A stretch of 64,000 nt of DNA from Candidatus Jorgensenbacteria bacterium GW2011_GWA1_48_11 (lineage in GTDB: Bacteria; Patescibacteriota; Minisyncoccia; UBA6257; GWB1-50-10), in NCBI GenBank assembly GCA_001003475.1, contig LCPF01000001.1, positions 234,571 to 298,570 on the forward strand. Reading direction: 5' to 3'. Under the pieces are notes generated by a model. That model was not told where the DNA came from, did no database searches, and saw only the letters and a program-made list of their open reading frames with translations. A program made the position numbers and the translations under genes. Below, in pieces: positions 13,677 through 21,783 of this stretch; within the stretch, counting starts at the first letter, position 1; each line of letters opens with the position of its first letter.

Positions 13677-13763
13677 CGGAGGGTGGAGGATTCGAACCCC
13701 CGAGGGGATTTCTCCCCAACCGCATTTCGAGTGCGGCGCATTAGACCGCTCTGCCAACCCTCC
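13677..13763 (-). tRNA. tRNA-Ser (anticodon CGA)
   Basis: Hand fold: acceptor GGAGGGT/ACCCTCC, anticodon loop CTCGAAA, long variable arm, T-loop TTCGAAT; CCA not encoded. Confidence 0.8.
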
Positions 13764-13772
13764 TTAACGCCG

Positions 13773-13844
13773 TGCCCCCAGAAAGAATCGAACTCTCATC
13801 TTTCCCTTAGGACGGGACTGCTCTATCCATTGAGCTATAGGGGC
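13773..13844 (-). tRNA. tRNA-Arg (anticodon CCT)
   Basis: Acceptor GCCCCTA/TGGGGGC, D-arm GCTC…GAGC, anticodon loop GTCCTAA, T-loop TTCGATT. There is one mismatch at 27:43. Confidence 0.7.
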
Positions 13845-13910
13845 GTGGTTTCACTATTTATAAACTAAGTTGCGGTTTTGGTAAAGTTTTGATATTTTAA
13901 TTAAACAGCC

Positions 13911-13982
13911 GCGCGATTAGCTCAGTGGTAGAGCGTCACATTGACATTGTGAAGGCCGCTGGTCCGATCCCAGCATCGCGCA
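13911..13982 (+). tRNA. tRNA-Val (anticodon GAC)
   Basis: Acceptor GCGCGAT/ATCGCGC, D-arm TAGCTCAGTGGTAGAGC, anticodon stem TCACA/TGTGA with loop TTGACAT. Confidence 0.8.
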
Positions 13983-14089
13983 CACAAAAATCTGACTCGG
14001 GTTTTTGTCGGCCTATATCAAAATATTATTTTGATATAGCCCCAGCGATCGGACGTAATAAAAGTAAGCTTTTATTCCGCTCCTCGCTT

Positions 14090-14163
14090 GGGCCTATAGT
14101 AAAATGGCATTACGCTTCCGTGGCACGGAAGAGGTCGGGGTTCGATTCCCCGTAGGTCCACCA
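14090..14163 (+). tRNA. tRNA-Ala (anticodon GGC), 3' CCA encoded
   Basis: Acceptor GGGCCTA/TAGGTCC with the G3·U70 Ala identity pair; anticodon loop GTGGCAC; T-loop TTCGATT; ends …ACCA. The uppS GTG start follows 1 nt later. Confidence 0.8.
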
Positions 14164-14164
14164 G

Positions 14165-14872
14165 GTGGAAAATTTACCAAAACACATCGTTATTATTCCG
14201 GATGGCAATCGGCGTTGGGCCAGGGCTAAGGGCCTCGCGGCTTTTTTGGGTCACGAAAAAGGCGCGGAAACGACCGAAAATATAATGGAGGTCGCCCTGG
14301 AACTGAAGATTCCCTATTTCACCTTTTGGGGTTCTTCTTTGGACAATATCGAAAAGCGGCCCAAGGCCGAGGTGGAGTTTTTGTTCAAGATCTTCGAAAA
14401 GGAATTCAAGAAACTTCTTACGAGCGACAAGGTTAGTGAAAACGGCGTCCGGGTGAATGTCCTCGGCCGCTGGCAGGAATTGTTTCCGAAAAGTTTGGTT
14501 GATTTGATGAAAGAAATAATCGCGAAAACGAAAGATTACAGCAATTACCACCTGACATTTTTAATGGCCTATAGCGGCCTTGACGAGATGAAAACGGCTG
14601 TTCAGAGGATTGCCGATAATAAAATCCAAGATTCCGATTTTAAAATAGACGGCGATTCGATTAAGGCCAATCTTTGGACCCGTGATTTGCCGCCGGTGGA
14701 CCTGGTCATTCGGACCGGGGGCGAACCCCATTGGTCAAACGGCTTAATGATGTGGGACGTTGCCGATGCCCAGCTTTATTTCACGGAAACCCTGTATCCG
14801 GACTTTTCGCCCGAGGAATTCAAGAAGGCGCTGATGGCTTACGGGAAAACGTCCCGCCGTTTCGGCGCCTGA
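14165..14872 (+). CDS. uppS: Undecaprenyl-diphosphate synthase (cis-isoprenyl transferase)
   Basis: Hallmark [13 protein letters not shown] near the N-terminus; 235 aa; GTG start directly after tRNA-Ala. Confidence 0.85.
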
Positions 14873-15694: not shown

Positions 15695-16720
15695 TCAAGA
15701 AACCAAATCCGGCTCTATCTCGAGTTCGATGCCGAATTTAGTGCGCACCGACTTGATGATTTCTTGGGCGGTTTCGATAACCGTCTGAAAAGTAGCCGAG
15801 CCGTCGTTTACCAGAACGAGGGCGTTTCTTTTGTCTACGTGGAGGTGATCGAAATCTTTTTCTTTCAGGCCGCAGGCGTCGATGAGCCAGCCCGCGGAAA
15901 CTTTTGCTTTACCGCCGCTAGCCGGGAAAATCGGCAGATTCGGGTAGTTGCGCTTCAGCTTTTCCGCTTGGGCCTGGGAAATTAACGGGTTTTCGAAAAA
16001 AGAACCGACATTGGGATATTTTCGGGGATCGGGGAGCTTTTCGGCGCGAGTCGCCAAAATAATTCTCCTTATATCTTGGAGGGAAGGTGAGCTTATTCCT
16101 TCTGAAGCGAGCTTTTCTTTTATGCCCGGATAAGCGGGTATGGCGGGCGGGAGAAGGGAGAGCCGGATCGTGACGCCGGTAATGATATAGCGGCCGCGCC
16201 CGGATTTTTTGAAAACACTTATCCGATAGCCGAATTCGCAATCTTTCGGGCGGAGAACAATAGGGGAAGACGATTCAATGTCGTAAGCACGGATTTCCAC
16301 TGCGACATTCGCGAATTCCTGGCCGTAAGCGCCGATGTTCTGGATGGGCGCGGCGCCGACCGTACCGGGAATGCCCGAAAGAGTTTCGATGCCCTGATAG
16401 CCGCGTTCGACCGACCAGGCGACGGCCTTATCCCAAGAAACGCCGGCCTCGATTTCTATAACAACCTCGGTTTGGTCTTTCCGAATTTCGCGGATGGCGT
16501 CGAAGCCGAGTTTTAAGAAGAATTTGTTGATGGCCGCATCGGAGAAAATCGTATTCGAGCCCTCGCCCAAAACGTGGATGGGCAGGTTCTTTTTTTGGGC
16601 GAAAGCAACGAGTTCGGGAATGGCGGCGGGGCTTCCGGCTTCGGCAAAATAACGGGCCAAGCCGCCCAGCCGGAAGGTGGAGTGGGGAGCCAGGGGAATG
16701 TTTTCCAGGATCGGGGTCAC
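15695..16720 (-). CDS. murB: UDP-N-acetylenolpyruvoylglucosamine reductase
   Basis: N-terminal FAD-binding PLAPHSTFRLGG… and a C-terminal MurB domain; 341 aa; divergent from murA. Confidence 0.8.
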   Translation of the reverse strand: MTPILENIPLAPHSTFRLGGLARYFAEAGSPAAIPELVAFAQKKNLPIHVLGEGSNTIFSDAAINKFFLKLGFDAIREIRKDQTEVVIEIEAGVSWDKAVAWSVERGYQGIETLSGIPGTVGAAPIQNIGAYGQEFANVAVEIRAYDIESSSPIVLRPKDCEFGYRISVFKKSGRGRYIITGVTIRLSLLPPAIPAYPGIKEKLASEGISSPSLQDIRRIILATRAEKLPDPRKYPNVGSFFENPLISQAQAEKLKRNYPNLPIFPASGGKAKVSAGWLIDACGLKEKDFDHLHVDKRNALVLVNDGSATFQTVIETAQEIIKSVRTKFGIELEIEPDLVS

Positions 16721-16739
16721 GGCATCAGTATATCACATA

Positions 16740-16748
16740 TGATATAAT
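16740..16748 (+). promoter_or_regulatory. Extended -10 element TGATATAAT upstream of murA
   Basis: An exact TGnTATAAT lies 16 nt before the murA ATG. Confidence 0.4.
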
Positions 16749-16763
16749 GGTAGTGTCAATAAA

Positions 16764-18272
16764 ATGTCGGAACAAAGAAAAATCGGTTCTTTCATCAAAT
16801 CTCTGCGCGAGGCGCGCGGTTTGACGCAGGAAGAATTTGCCAAAGCGCTCGGCACTTCGCAGAGCGCGGTGGCGCGGATGGAACGCGGCGGTCAGAATTT
16901 CACGACGCACGTCTTGGGAAAGATCGGCCGGACCCTGGAACATAAGATCGTCGCCTTGACGAACTCCGTTGACTTCAAGATCGAGGGCGGGCGCAAGCTG
17001 CACGGCGCGATTACGACGAATTCTTCCAAGAACGGCGCTTTGGGTTTGCTCGCCGCCTCATTGATAAACCGGGCGCCGACCACATTGCGCGGCATTCCGC
17101 GCATCGAGGAGGTGAACCGGTTCGTGGAAGTTTTGCAGAGCATCGGCGTAAAAGTGGAGTGGATAGATAAGAATAGCGTACTCGTTACGCCGCCCAAGAC
17201 ATTGCGATTGGGCGAAATGAACAATCTTTCGGCGGAGAAGATCCGTTCGATTCTGATGCTCATCGGCGGTCTTATCCATCGGGCCAAATTATTTTCCATT
17301 CCGCATGCGGGCGGCTGCAAGATGGGGAATCGGACGATTGCCGCCCATCGTTATGGCCTCGAGGCATTGGGAGTGAAGATCGCCACTCGCGATAAGAAAT
17401 ACGATATTAAGGTCGGCAAGCTGCAGCCAGCCGAAATCACGCTTTATGAAGCGAGCGATACGGCCACGGAAAATTTGCTGATTGCGGCGGCGGGCATTCC
17501 GGGCACGACCGTCATTTCTTTTGCCACCCCGAATTATCAAGTGCAGGAAGTTTGTTTTTTCTTGGAGGCATTGGGTATCCGTTTGGAGGGCATCGGTACC
17601 TCGACGCTTACGGTGCACGGCGTGGAAAAAATCGATACGCCCATAGAATACGAGAACAGCGAAGACCCGATCGAATCAATGATGTTTCTCTCGGCGGCAA
17701 TCACGACCAAATCGGAATTGACCGTGAAGCGCTGCCCGATAGATTTTTTAAAGTTGGAGCTTTTAAAATTGGAGAAGATGGGATTGCGGTACAAAAAAAC
17801 GCGAGAGTATCTTTCCCGGAACCGGCGGACAAAATTGGTGGACGTCACGGTCTATCCGTCACGGCTCACGGCCCTCGACGACAAAATTCATGCTCAGCCT
17901 TACCCCGGGATCAATACCGATAATTTGCCCTTTTTCGTGCCGATCGCGACGCAGGCCCTGGGTACCACCTTGATTCACGATTGGATGTGGGAGAATCGGG
18001 CAATTTATTTTACGGAACTCAATCGTTTGGGCGCGAAAGTCACCTTGGCCGATCCGCACCGCGCTTTTATCCAGGGGCCGACGCCGCTTAAGGCGACGCA
18101 AGTGGTTTGTCCGCCCGCTTTGCGGCCGGCAATGATCATTTTGATCGCGATGCTCGGCGCCAAAGGCGTTTCCATTTTGCGCAATGTTTATTCGATTAAC
18201 CGGGGCTATGAGGAGATCGCCCATCGTTTGAACAGCATCGGTGCCCGCATCTCGGTTTTGAGCGGGGTGTAG
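16764..18272 (+). CDS. murA: UDP-N-acetylglucosamine 1-carboxyvinyltransferase (MurA) with an N-terminal XRE-family helix-turn-helix domain
   Basis: Residues 1–65 form a Cro/C1-type HTH (…LREARGLTQEEFAKALGTSQSAVARMERG…). The rest is full-length MurA (KLHGAITTNSSKNGALGLLAASL…, catalytic Cys in IPHAGGCKMG). It is one continuous 502-aa ORF. Confidence 0.8.
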   Translation: MSEQRKIGSFIKSLREARGLTQEEFAKALGTSQSAVARMERGGQNFTTHVLGKIGRTLEHKIVALTNSVDFKIEGGRKLHGAITTNSSKNGALGLLAASLINRAPTTLRGIPRIEEVNRFVEVLQSIGVKVEWIDKNSVLVTPPKTLRLGEMNNLSAEKIRSILMLIGGLIHRAKLFSIPHAGGCKMGNRTIAAHRYGLEALGVKIATRDKKYDIKVGKLQPAEITLYEASDTATENLLIAAAGIPGTTVISFATPNYQVQEVCFFLEALGIRLEGIGTSTLTVHGVEKIDTPIEYENSEDPIESMMFLSAAITTKSELTVKRCPIDFLKLELLKLEKMGLRYKKTREYLSRNRRTKLVDVTVYPSRLTALDDKIHAQPYPGINTDNLPFFVPIATQALGTTLIHDWMWENRAIYFTELNRLGAKVTLADPHRAFIQGPTPLKATQVVCPPALRPAMIILIAMLGAKGVSILRNVYSINRGYEEIAHRLNSIGARISVLSGV

Positions 18273-18327: not shown

Positions 18328-18398
18328 TGCGGGTAGGCGGAATCGAACCGCCGTCTCATCCTTGGCAAGGACGTGTTCTGCCACTAAACCATACCCGC
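18328..18398 (-). tRNA. tRNA-Gly (anticodon GCC)
   Basis: Acceptor GCGGGTA/TACCCGC, anticodon stem CGTCC/GGATG with loop TTGCCAA, T-stem GGCGG/CCGCC. Confidence 0.8.
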
Positions 18399-18473
18399 CT
18401 TCGCTCGCCTTGCGAGCTTCGGCGGGCAGGCCCGCCATAAAACTCGTGAAAACGAAAGCTATCTTATTTTAAA

Positions 18474-18659
18474 TTACTGCACCGGTGGCGGACCGCTGGG
18501 ACCTGTTATGTAAGGCGTACTCGTCGGTCCTTTGAAGGCCCGGTCCGGTGTCGCGGTCGGCGCCTCTGTTCTCGGCACGCCGAAAACCAGCGGCCAGACG
18601 ATCGATAAAACGATTAAGGCCAGCACGATAAGAAGAATTATCAATCCGACCCTGCTCAT
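18474..18659 (-). CDS. Small membrane protein (61 aa) with a Pro/Thr-rich tail
   Basis: One TM helix followed by PRTEAPTATPD…GPSGPPPVQ; located between two tRNAs. Confidence 0.35.
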   Translation of the reverse strand: MSRVGLIILLIVLALIVLSIVWPLVFGVPRTEAPTATPDRAFKGPTSTPYITGPSGPPPVQ

Positions 18660-18718
18660 TGAAATAATTTAAACCAAAAACGTTTTTAATTCAAATTGCG
18701 ACTTCATTATTTTTTTTG

Positions 18719-18790
18719 TGCCCTCGAGAGGAATCGAACCTCTATTACAAGATCCGCAATCTTGCGTCCTGTCCGTTGAACGACGAGGGC
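18719..18790 (-). tRNA. tRNA-Arg (anticodon GCG; unusual isoacceptor)
   Basis: Acceptor GCCCTCG/CGAGGGC, anticodon stem CAAGA/TCTTG with loop TTGCGGA (G34 C35 G36, G37), T-loop TTCGATT. Confidence 0.6.
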
Positions 18791-18875
18791 AAATGAGACG
18801 ATAAAATGTGCCTTTGTGTATATTATACCGCTGAATGCCGCCCTTGTTTTGCTTTTAGCAAAGCCGGGGGGGCGT

Positions 18876-19358
18876 TCAGAATCCCAGCCAATCCGCGAAA
18901 ACGTCGATTATCGATTCCTTGTGTTCGATTGCCGGCAGTTTTTCGCCGAGGAACGTTTGGGCTTCGGCCGCGGTTTTGGCGTCAATCGGGATCTTTACGT
19001 AGGGATTGAAAGCGGACTTTTTCTTCAAGATCATTTCATCCAGTCGGCCCGGCCGGTTATTGATCGTAAAGCCTTCCAAGGCCTCGTAATTATAAAATAT
19101 CTTGGGGCCGATCCCGACGCCTTCATCGGTCAGGCGGAAGTCCAATGTTTGGGATTTAGTCCGGCCGAAAGCGACAAGCACCACGAAGGCAAAAACAATG
19201 AAAATCCCAAAAAAGAAATTGCCGCTGGCGAGGGAAAAAACAACCAATAAGAAAGAGATGCCGCCCACCACGAGATACCAGATTGGCCCCCGGTCGAAAC
19301 TCTCATATTCGGCGGCCCGCCAACTCAAGCCTTTTTCTGAACCCGTTTTTTTTGACAT
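18876..19358 (-). CDS. Hypothetical membrane protein (two TM helices plus a soluble C-terminal domain)
   Basis: 160-aa ORF with two hydrophobic helices; no recognised motifs. Confidence 0.45.
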   Translation of the reverse strand: MSKKTGSEKGLSWRAAEYESFDRGPIWYLVVGGISFLLVVFSLASGNFFFGIFIVFAFVVLVAFGRTKSQTLDFRLTDEGVGIGPKIFYNYEALEGFTINNRPGRLDEMILKKKSAFNPYVKIPIDAKTAAEAQTFLGEKLPAIEHKESIIDVFADWLGF

Positions 19359-19375
19359 ATGTTATTTTTAAAACT

Positions 19376-19453
19376 TGGTAGCCCCGACGGGATTCGAACC
19401 CGTGTACCAGGCTTGAAAAGCCTGTGTCCTAGGCCAGACTAGACGACAGGGCC
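19376..19453 (-). tRNA. tRNA-Glu (anticodon TTC), CCA encoded
   Basis: Acceptor GGCCCTG/CGGGGCT with two G·U pairs; a GTCTAG…CTAGGAC D-arm like E. coli tRNA-Glu; anticodon loop TTTTCAA; T-loop TTCGAAT; ACCA at the end. Confidence 0.75.
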
Positions 19454-19454
19454 A

Positions 19455-19691
19455 TTACTTTAAGTGTCTTTTCATAAAAGCACGGCCTGAGCCGGACTTC
19501 AAGTATTTTTCAAACTTGAAAGCTGTATATTTATCAGCAAACACGAGATAACAATCTAATTTTACTGGTCTAATGTTTCTTGTCGCTGGGACATAACCTT
19601 TCTCATGTCTCTCAAGCCCATCTTTTAAGTCGTCAGTACAACCTGTATAAGATTTATCGTTTTTGCAATTCAGGATATAAACATACCACAT
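19455..19691 (-). CDS. GIY-YIG nuclease-superfamily small protein (UPF0213/YhbQ-like)
   Basis: MWYVYIL…YTGCTDDL…RHEKG…, a typical GIY-YIG core; 78 aa; sits between two tRNA genes. Confidence 0.7.
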   Translation of the reverse strand: MWYVYILNCKNDKSYTGCTDDLKDGLERHEKGYVPATRNIRPVKLDCYLVFADKYTAFKFEKYLKSGSGRAFMKRHLK

Positions 19692-19768
19692 AAAATTTCT
19701 TGGCGAATCCCGCCGTCGCGATCTTCTGGCGGACTGCGTCCGCCGAAGCCCGCTATGGCGGACGAAGG

Positions 19769-19857
19769 CGGAGGCGGAAGGATTCGAACCTTCGGTACGG
19801 TTTTACCCGTACAACGGTTTAGCAAACCGCTTCTTTAAGCCACTCAGACACGCCTCC
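19769..19857 (-). tRNA. tRNA-Ser (anticodon GCT)
   Basis: Acceptor GGAGGCG/CGCCTCC, anticodon stem GCGGT/ACCGT with loop TTGCTAA, long variable arm GTACGGG…CCGTAC, T-loop TTCGAAT. Confidence 0.75.
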
Positions 19858-21327: not shown

Positions 21328-21686
<359 letters not shown>

Positions 21687-21698
21687 CCCAGATGATTT

Positions 21699-21783
21699 GC
21701 CCGGGTGCTGAAATTGGTATACAGGAGGGACTTAAAATCCCTTGTCCCTAAAGGACGTGTGGGTTCGACCCCCACCCCGGGCA
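21699..21783 (+). tRNA. tRNA-Leu (anticodon TAA)
   Basis: Acceptor GCCCGGG/CCCGGGC, anticodon stem AGGGA/TCCCT with loop CTTAAAA, long variable arm, T-loop TTCGACC. Confidence 0.75.

Follow-up and report, generated by a model that had tools for sequence, protein, structure and literature searches.

Several bacterial enzymes double as regulators of their own pathway: BirA (biotin ligase and bio repressor), PutA (proline dehydrogenase and put repressor) and NadR (nicotinamide mononucleotide adenylyltransferase and repressor) each combine an enzyme with a DNA-binding domain that acts on an own-pathway operator, and they share the logic of a trigger enzyme, in which transcription responds to how much of the enzyme is present or to its ligand state. 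Here we describe a gene that probably follows this logic at the entry to peptidoglycan synthesis. It lies at positions 16764 to 18272 of a 64,000-nucleotide stretch of contig LCPF01000001.1 from Candidatus Jorgensenbacteria bacterium GW2011_GWA1_48_11 (the whole stretch is called the window below) and encodes MurA, the enzyme of the committed, fosfomycin-targeted step of cell-wall synthesis, fused to an N-terminal XRE/Cro-C1 helix-turn-helix (HTH) domain. Comparison of this protein (HTH-MurA), its relatives and an 18-bp palindrome at its promoter leads us to regard it as a likely bifunctional enzyme and autorepressor, that is, a trigger enzyme, controlling murA, murB and, in certain relatives, murC. 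Unlike BirA, PutA and NadR, it has a MurA/EPSP-synthase fold, an XRE/Cro-C1 domain and a place in the peptidoglycan pathway, and whereas ligand-dependent DNA binding has been demonstrated in those three proteins, for HTH-MurA it is a conjecture.

MurA is known to be controlled by ClpCP proteolysis through ReoM, ReoY and PrkA in Firmicutes, by CwlM activation in mycobacteria, and by feedback from UDP-N-acetylmuramic acid (UDP-MurNAc) in the 'dormant complex'. To our knowledge, all known mechanisms of MurA control are post-translational. HTH-MurA would share their target and the throttling of the committed peptidoglycan step but, unlike them, the enzyme here appears to carry its own transcriptional switch. 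In domain order it resembles BzdR of Azoarcus, which has an N-terminal XRE HTH, a linker and an enzyme-derived (shikimate-kinase-like) domain, and NF006015 (BzdR family) is a weak match of the window HTH; unlike in BzdR, the enzyme domain in the window is intact and probably serves as the cell's MurA, and the C-terminal fold is different. RodZ likewise places an XRE fold on a peptidoglycan-synthesis protein, but the RodZ HTH contacts MreB and RodZ is a membrane protein, whereas HTH-MurA has no membrane segment and is accompanied by a conserved palindrome. The XRE antitoxins (HigA with Gp49/HigB; HipB; PezA) have a homologous HTH and an identical palindrome at the promoter; in contrast to them, the fusion partner here is an essential biosynthetic enzyme instead of a toxin-neutralising segment, and the neighbours are murB and a tRNA. 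Full-text literature searches turned up no description of the HTH-MurA fusion or of its operator, the apparent matches being reference-list false positives, and the architecture, although visible in public annotation, appears to be uncharacterised.

The gene and its parts occupy the following positions, with model confidence given as the predicted local distance difference test (pLDDT).

16764..18272, plus strand: HTH-MurA fusion gene, 502 residues plus stop (single open reading frame; Pfam, NCBIfam)
16764..16937, plus strand: XRE/Cro-C1 HTH, residues 1-58, with helices at 2-17, 22-29, 33-40 and 48-58 (HTH_3; model pLDDT 77-88)
16854..16898, plus strand: recognition helix and next turn, TSQSAVARMERGGQN, residues 31-45 (conservation in 75 orthologues)
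16938..16970, plus strand: linker of 11 residues, 59-69, flexible or disordered (pLDDT below 50 at residues 64-67)
16971..18269, plus strand: MurA domain (UDP-GlcNAc 1-carboxyvinyltransferase, EC 2.5.1.7), residues 70-502 (NF006873, PDB, Foldseek)
17316..17318, plus strand: codon of the catalytic Cys185 in the mobile loop (alignments; low pLDDT at residues 185-187)

In the list of open reading frames (ORFs) of the window, the gene is a single unbroken frame of 502 residues plus stop with an ATG start, and an in-frame TGA 21 nt 5' of this ATG means that the frame cannot be extended upstream. Residues 11-58 match Pfam HTH_3 (PF01381; E 1.4e-12, 47.9 bits against a cut-off of 23), HTH_31 also matches (44.3 bits, cut-off 27), and residues 74-488 match EPSP_synthase (E 1.3e-45). 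The protein belongs to the NCBIfam MurA subfamily NF006873 (331.1 bits, cut-off 297) and scores 321.3 bits with the stricter equivalog TIGR01072, under its cut-off of 392.7, which marks the enzyme as a divergent MurA; its best PDB matches are all MurA chains, with E values down to 7e-50. Alignment to solved MurA chains shows that the catalytic residues C185, K89, N90, R161, R190, D386, R412 and R480 are present (in the same order, Cys115, K22, N23, R91, R120, D305, R371 and R397 of the Escherichia coli enzyme), with C185 in the context PHAGGCKMGNR, and all eight catalytic or substrate residues are invariant across 52 homologues. An AlphaFold2 model of the single chain, built on the alignment of these 52 homologues, reached a mean pLDDT of 88.5 (mostly above 90 in the MurA body) and a predicted template modelling (TM) score of 0.81; it has the two-lobed inside-out alpha/beta barrel fold, and its low pLDDT at residues 185-187 is expected of the mobile MurA loop. 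Foldseek TM-scores of the MurA part against solved MurA structures were 0.86-0.93 (target-normalised), and an HTH is present in none of the matched structures, whose chains have about 410-440 residues. No second MurA-like gene lies within the 64-kb window. By these matches, a single chain carries an enzyme with its catalytic residues intact together with an intact DNA-reading domain, in line with the preliminary description, which had been made from the DNA letters alone and in which an XRE HTH was joined in one frame to a complete MurA with its catalytic Cys.

The spread of the fusion was judged on two comparison sets: the 120 highest-ranking database relatives, and the top 80 among the 510 stretches found to encode a relative when one genome per species was scanned. 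Both Pfam domains are present in every one of the 120 (66-78% identity, 501-518 residues, with one 579-residue outlier), and the top 80 of the 510 stretches show 65-77% identity, nearly all starting within the first seven residues of the HTH; a protein 100% identical to the window fusion is encoded in a Candidatus Jorgensenbacteria metagenome-assembled genome (P0001, on a 635-kb contig). The presence of the fusion in orthologues, suggested as a check in the preliminary description, was thus found in both sets. Linker length is near-constant over the orthologues, 1-residue indels being rare, and the junction has no conserved Met, so that neither a hidden internal start nor a frameshift is likely. 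On this comparative evidence the fusion is real and under selection.

More distant members include some from Zambryski-, Nomura-, Uhr-, Lipton-, Kerfeld- and Abawacabacteria and from Saccharimonadales, and a 509-residue HTH-MurA is common in cultured Actinomycetota (Nonomuraea and many Streptomyces, as well as Actinacidiphila, Streptacidiphilus, Peterkaempfera, Marinactinospora and Thermoactinospora), where annotation pipelines label it MurA or 'helix-turn-helix domain-containing protein'. With several classes of Patescibacteria and the Actinomycetota included, the earlier idea of a lineage-specific fusion proved too narrow. In several classes of the Candidate Phyla Radiation (CPR), a group with tiny genomes and few regulators for which experimental genetics is all but absent, this arrangement is the rule. 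In the actinomycetes, identity between genera is 86-96%, a very high value that hints at horizontal spread; in the N. gerenzanensis chromosome, HTH-MurA is one of three MurA-like places and presumably an extra paralogue. The actinomycete HTH-murA neighbourhoods differ from one another and hold no mur genes, and one of them lies beside a phage-type integrase. In S. venezuelae, murA2, possibly this fused paralogue, is a BldM-WhiI target (PMC4125116, PMC11005364).

Conservation within the protein points to the DNA-reading surface. Over 75 orthologues, mean pairwise identity is 66% in the HTH, 69% in the MurA domain and 82% in the recognition helix and its following turn, where T31, Q33, S34, R38, E40, G42, Q44 and N45 are invariant and S32 is kept in 74 of the 75. 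When catalytic members, degenerate members (see below) and actinomycete members are aligned together, at 28-45% overall identity, T31, S32, Q33, S34, A35, R38, E40, G42, Q44 and N45 are invariant. This pattern of conservation indicates selection on the HTH for reading DNA. Among solved structures, the HTHs closest to it are those of PezA, HipB, the 434 repressor, HigA and the controller proteins C.BclI, C.AhdI and C.Esp1396I. PezA, HipB, the restriction-modification controllers, the 434 repressor and HigA are autoregulatory dimers that act on palindromes.

The candidate operator lies in the 43-nt intergenic region between the fusion gene and a divergent murB that starts with GTG, together with putative promoter elements for both genes.

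16729..16746, no strand: candidate 18-bp palindromic operator TATATCA-CATA-TGATATA, TATATCACATATGATATA (unique in the window; conserved)
16740..16748, plus strand: putative extended -10 of murA, TGATATAAT, read from the sequence, overlapping the right arm, 15 nt before the ATG
16727..16735, minus strand: extended -10-like element TGATATACT of putative function for murB, overlapping the left arm and ending 6 nt before the murB GTG
15695..16720, minus strand: murB (UDP-N-acetylenolpyruvoylglucosamine reductase; NF000755, 334 bits, cut-off 277)

The palindrome TATATCACATATGATATA has 7-bp arms around a 4-bp centre, with eight of nine pairs symmetric and arm centres 11 bp apart, and is matched nowhere else in the 64-kb window when up to two mismatches are allowed (chance expectation 0.03); its consensus over related loci is TATATCAyATrTGATATA. 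A palindromic operator at a promoter with about one helical turn between its half-sites is what XRE regulators use. The preliminary description had already pointed out TGATATAAT and a CACATATG-centred inverted motif in this promoter, and both are there, the former at 16740-16748 and the latter as the 18-mer at 16729-16746. The right arm, extended by two bases, spells TGATATAAT, which is a perfect extended -10 box of a putative promoter, and the left arm with its flank gives the same sequence on the minus strand in 32 of 74 loci. In the window each arm appears to double as a TGnTATAnT extended -10, the right one for murA and the left one for murB. The form TGNTATAAT occurs eight times in the window and therefore looks like the usual promoter form in this host. 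A consensus sigma-70 scan of 16300-17100 found no promoter, a result explained by its demand for a -35 box, since these promoters look like extended -10 ones; a minus-strand TTGACA at 16759..16754 was considered as a -35 for murB and not counted, being 21 nt from the -10 hexamer. No riboswitch or leader was found near murA, and a search of the whole window with Rfam gave 16 tRNAs only. The divergent murB arrangement is kept in about 50 related loci, and murB is a probable co-regulated neighbour of HTH-murA.

Next, the upstream regions of 80 related loci were aligned at the start codon, a site being accepted on its arm pattern with at most two mismatches. The same 18-mer stands out from otherwise unconserved sequence, and in 72 of the 74 loci with enough upstream DNA its distance to the ATG is between -3 and 175 nt; elsewhere in 538 kb some ten sites were seen, all of them weaker. 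Over the 74 loci the 18-mer carries 1.80 bits of information per position, whereas the 20-nt flanks carry 0.29 and 0.32, and the four central bases, which were not used in finding the sites, reach 1.3-1.8 bits. The modal gaps between palindrome and ATG are 8 and 11 nt, and the palindrome touches the ATG in six loci; gaps this short suggest leaderless or near-leaderless transcripts. At least 10 loci have a co-directional upstream gene and hence no need of a divergent promoter, yet they too keep the two arms intact. Placement of the promoter boxes varies by lineage: the -10 box coincides with the right arm in many loci, a TTGACx-N17-TATCAT arrangement puts it in the left arm in L013, L016 and L037, and in L202 and the toxin-antitoxin operons described below TTGACA abuts the palindrome.

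The site accompanies the fusion into distant lineages. In Kerfeldbacteria the site is perfect and stands 50 nt ahead of the fusion gene; in Abawacabacteria it reads TATATCGTATGTGATATA and stands 25 nt ahead. Saccharimonadia-type loci have TATACCAggtgTGGTATA, with arms TATACCA/TGGTATA, or hybrids of these and the standard arms, and their recognition helix has Asn in place of Ala37; in five of these loci (L204, L207, L208, L209 and L210) glyA (serine hydroxymethyltransferase) is the divergent gene and murB lies one to two genes further. Three actinomycete genomes with 70-71% GC have gcATCTCATATGTGAGATa at a distance of 12-14 nt from the start codon, on its upstream side. This operator variant, ATCTCAtatgTGAGAT, is shared by two Nonomuraea species and Streptomyces iranensis and forms an AT-rich island that belongs to the same motif family; the TATCTCA/TGAGATA variant also occurs in the CPR loci L065 and L066. 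The actinomycete sites, ATCTCATATGTGAGAT, are these:

L211 4972-4987: Nonomuraea sp. NEAU-A123
L212 4973-4988: Streptomyces iranensis
L213 3972-3987: N. gerenzanensis

Second copies of the palindrome stand directly upstream of murC, at 8-9 nt, in L024 (1607-1624) and L071 (1748-1765), whose murC products score 403 and 409 bits with TIGR01082 against a cut-off of 335. This suggests that the regulon may extend to murC and a small protein in some lineages. The small protein is a conserved ORF of 83-95 residues that shares the divergent intergenic region holding the murC palindrome in L024 and L071; it has no Pfam match (L024 1583-1870, L071 1788-2039, L080 513-767). The palindrome is accordingly found at genes of a single pathway, at murA, murB and murC and beside unfused murA genes in the paralogue loci considered below. 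For bacteria that cannot be grown, the 18-bp operator offers a searchable handle on this putative regulon of murA, murB and, in some cases, murC, and the identical architecture and operator family in cultured, genetically tractable Streptomyces and Nonomuraea make the hypothesis testable.

Additionally, we scanned metagenome contigs for exact matches to the palindrome, a search unbiased with regard to genes, and obtained 125 sites. An HTH ORF of the same subfamily (by hidden Markov model match) lies within 1.2 kb of 45 of the 125, and none is present in the 354 kb of the same contigs that lie more than 2 kb from any site. Linkage of the palindrome is exclusive to this HTH subfamily (45 sites against 0). 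The remaining sites, about 80, have no subfamily HTH gene nearby and are taken for chance matches in AT-rich DNA or for truncated contigs. About 24 of the 45 HTH-linked sites belong to HTH-MurA genes. The other 21 belong to short XRE proteins, many of them encoded by the second gene of operons for Gp49/HigB-like toxins (PF05973, E down to 1e-24), and the promoters of these operons carry the identical 18-bp palindrome. The short proteins are 31-48% identical to the window HTH and share with it the motif GTxQSxxARxExGxQNF; the toxin-antitoxin recognition helix, GTKQSNIARMETGQQNF, is similar to the one in HTH-MurA, GTSQSAVARMEKGEQNF. Through palindromes at the promoter, type II antitoxins keep the operons that encode them repressed, and the occurrence of the same helix type and the same palindrome in toxin-antitoxin operons is therefore independent support for pairing this HTH with this palindrome. 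Together with the conserved footprint and its recurrence across phyla, this linkage lends strong comparative support to the autoregulation of the divergent murB-murA promoter that had been proposed in the preliminary description.

HTH and operator were probably recruited together from a toxin-antitoxin module, as far as these similarities can tell. No Gp49-like ORF is found near any of the 81 fusion loci, PF05973 being confined to separate toxin-antitoxin loci, and with no toxin gene beside the fusion, HTH-MurA does not belong to a toxin-antitoxin module. Sharing of the operator might allow cross-talk of toxin-antitoxin operons with murA-murB, if both are present in one cell. The toxin-antitoxin loci include L106, L136, L149, L152, L161, L167, L169, L170, L189, L192 and others, and in several of them the toxin ORF can be read from an ATG inside the palindrome, giving the N-terminus MIYN.

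A further, rare group of relatives has lost the enzyme and kept the reader. About a dozen degenerate HTH-MurA-like proteins lack the Cys loop and other catalytic residues and score 213-235 bits with NF006873, below the cut-off of 297, and they retain the invariant recognition helix TSQSA..R.E.G.QN. Two of them are given here:

L201 3498-5003: degenerate paralogue P0143, without Cys loop; equivalents of R120 and R397 lost
L202 6001-7503: degenerate paralogue P0156, without Cys loop; equivalents of R120 and R397 lost

In both loci, the degenerate gene is divergent from a mur cluster that holds an unfused 438-residue murA, which is catalytically intact by sequence (325 bits against the cut-off of 297) and in L202 directly adjoins the paralogue. 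The clusters also hold murB, Mur ligases or ddl, and the palindrome lies in the shared intergenic region. Such loci look like a split of the fusion into an enzyme and a pseudoenzyme regulator. The degenerate paralogues (P0143, P0156 and others) are the members closest to BzdR, with a dead enzyme fold as the effector domain of a repressor. Taken with the operator shared with toxin-antitoxin operons, they may offer a rare view of how an enzyme-regulator was assembled from a toxin-antitoxin HTH together with its operator, and then split again.

We propose the following mechanism for HTH-MurA. The C-terminal 433 residues would work as MurA at the committed step of peptidoglycan precursor synthesis, with the four-helix XRE domain tethered to them by the flexible linker of about 11 residues. 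Two copies of the protein would bind the two 7-bp arms of TATATCA-N4-TGATATA, about one helical turn apart; as the arms are putative -10 elements of both promoters, an occupied operator would exclude RNA polymerase from both. Negative autoregulation would follow: how strongly murA and murB are transcribed, and murC too in some relatives, would depend on the amount of MurA, and the entry flux into peptidoglycan synthesis would be held steady in an organism with very few regulators. That the fused HTH binds the palindrome and represses is what we infer from the footprint, its position and the subfamily linkage.

Several observations weigh against this proposal. Assembly of two copies on the palindrome is the main gap in the mechanism: the fused HTH in the AlphaFold2 model has no fifth helix of the kind usually used for dimerisation, and MurA enzymes are usually regarded as monomers. 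The resemblance of the arms to -10 elements means that promoter function could explain part of their conservation. Covariation between helix and operator is suggestive at best. TGAGATA arms accompany an SQSS[IV]PRME helix in 11 loci, and the Asn37 helix of Saccharimonadia pairs with TATACCA/TGGTATA arms, but four loci pair TGAGATA arms with the standard helix SQSAVARME, and the TATACCA arms predicted from Asn37 in actinomycetes were not the ones found, which are ATCTCA/TGAGAT. In these alignments the covariation is partial and confounded by phylogeny.

The alternative that keeps most of the proposal is that the HTH binds the palindrome as an activator, or as a dual regulator switched by ligand, which we think unlikely. 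An activator would suit the sites in L202 and the toxin-antitoxin operons that abut a TTGACA -35, and would be compatible with the varying position of the palindrome relative to the promoter, with some loci having it 30-175 nt from the ATG. Most loci, however, have it overlapping the -10 or the start codon, which is the classical position for steric repression, and the nearest relatives of the HTH (antitoxins, controller proteins and the 434 repressor) repress from such sites.

It is decidedly unlikely, in our view, that another protein, such as a free XRE/HigA-like antitoxin, reads the palindrome and that the fused HTH serves for a RodZ-like contact or as a nucleoid tether. Free-standing XRE antitoxin operons do use the identical palindrome, and the XRE fold of RodZ makes protein contacts in cell-wall synthesis. 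Against this, the palindrome tracks the fusion gene across two phyla and through changing neighbours, no free-standing gene for an HTH of the subfamily is seen in the 81 fusion loci or the 64-kb window, the DNA-reading residues are the most conserved part of the family, and the fusion has no transmembrane or RodZ-like region.

We attach a very low probability to a palindrome that acts merely as a compact bidirectional promoter, or as a DNA or RNA hairpin, with the HTH as an evolutionary passenger. Each arm plus 2 nt fits TGnTATAnT, and the left arm reads TGATATAAT towards murB in the 32 of 74 loci mentioned above; but the arms are kept where no divergent gene is present, the central four bases are conserved, the ATCTCAtatgTGAGAT arms in DNA of 70% GC do not read TGnTATAnT, and the palindrome co-occurs with the HTH subfamily at 45 sites against 0. 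As to a hairpin, the intergenic RNA folds at -9.5 kcal/mol (z-score -2.4), a fold typical of any palindrome, and the predicted transcription starts lie 3' of the palindrome, so that most of it would be outside the mRNA; we rejected the RNA hairpin on these grounds. There is next to no chance that the fusion is an assembly or frameshift artefact joining a small regulator gene to murA, a break at the HTH/MurA boundary that the preliminary description had named as grounds for doubt, because the same frame and near-invariant linker recur in independently assembled genomes (the best 80 of the 510 stretches) and the architecture is also found in finished chromosomes of cultured Nonomuraea and Streptomyces.

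Within the proposed autorepression by HTH-MurA, a further step is conceivable. MurA closes on UDP-N-acetylglucosamine (UDP-GlcNAc) and forms stable complexes with UDP-MurNAc and Cys-bound phosphoenolpyruvate (PEP). The Foldseek matches of the fusion include such MurA-UDP-MurNAc-PEP complexes (3su9, 3swd, 8d84 and others), structures which indicate that the fold can sense a downstream product, and with ligand closure known as well, a product-sensing repressor is conceivable. It is a speculative idea that the ligand state of the MurA domain (UDP-GlcNAc, PEP, UDP-MurNAc; open or closed) tunes DNA binding. We hold it possible, though only tentatively, that the MurA domain is the sensor of a one-protein feedback loop in which ligand-driven movement would reposition the tethered HTHs on the palindrome. 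If so, the cell would read its peptidoglycan-precursor pool directly at the murA, murB and murC promoters, the dead paralogues beside an unfused murA would be dedicated enzyme-derived sensors, and antitoxin levels could cross-regulate entry into cell-wall synthesis through the shared operator.

Two further occurrences of palindrome-like sequence were seen. Two homologous ORFs of about 305 residues with a hydrophobic N-terminus, one in L009 and one in L019, each contain a copy of the palindrome with one mismatch (L009 551-568, L019 1061-1078); the copy stands at an offset of about 380 nt in both and may reflect conserved coding sequence or an internal site. In the window, a perfect palindrome with 13-bp arms is present at 14012-14040 (CTATATCAAAATA-T-TATTTTGATATAG), between tRNAs at 13911-13982 and 14090-14160 and upstream of uppS (14165-14872); its outer arms, TATATCA/TGATATA, are those of the murA operator, set 15 nt apart instead of 4, a spacing that does not match the dimer geometry of the murA palindrome. 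The murB-murA pair itself lies amid tRNAs (13677-14160, 18328-19857 and 21615-21783), with 12 of the 16 tRNAs of the window within about 3.5 kb on either side. Between these tRNAs, a small ORF at 19455-19691 on the minus strand encodes 78 residues beginning MWYVYILNCKNDKSYTGCT, which we take to resemble a GIY-YIG nuclease.

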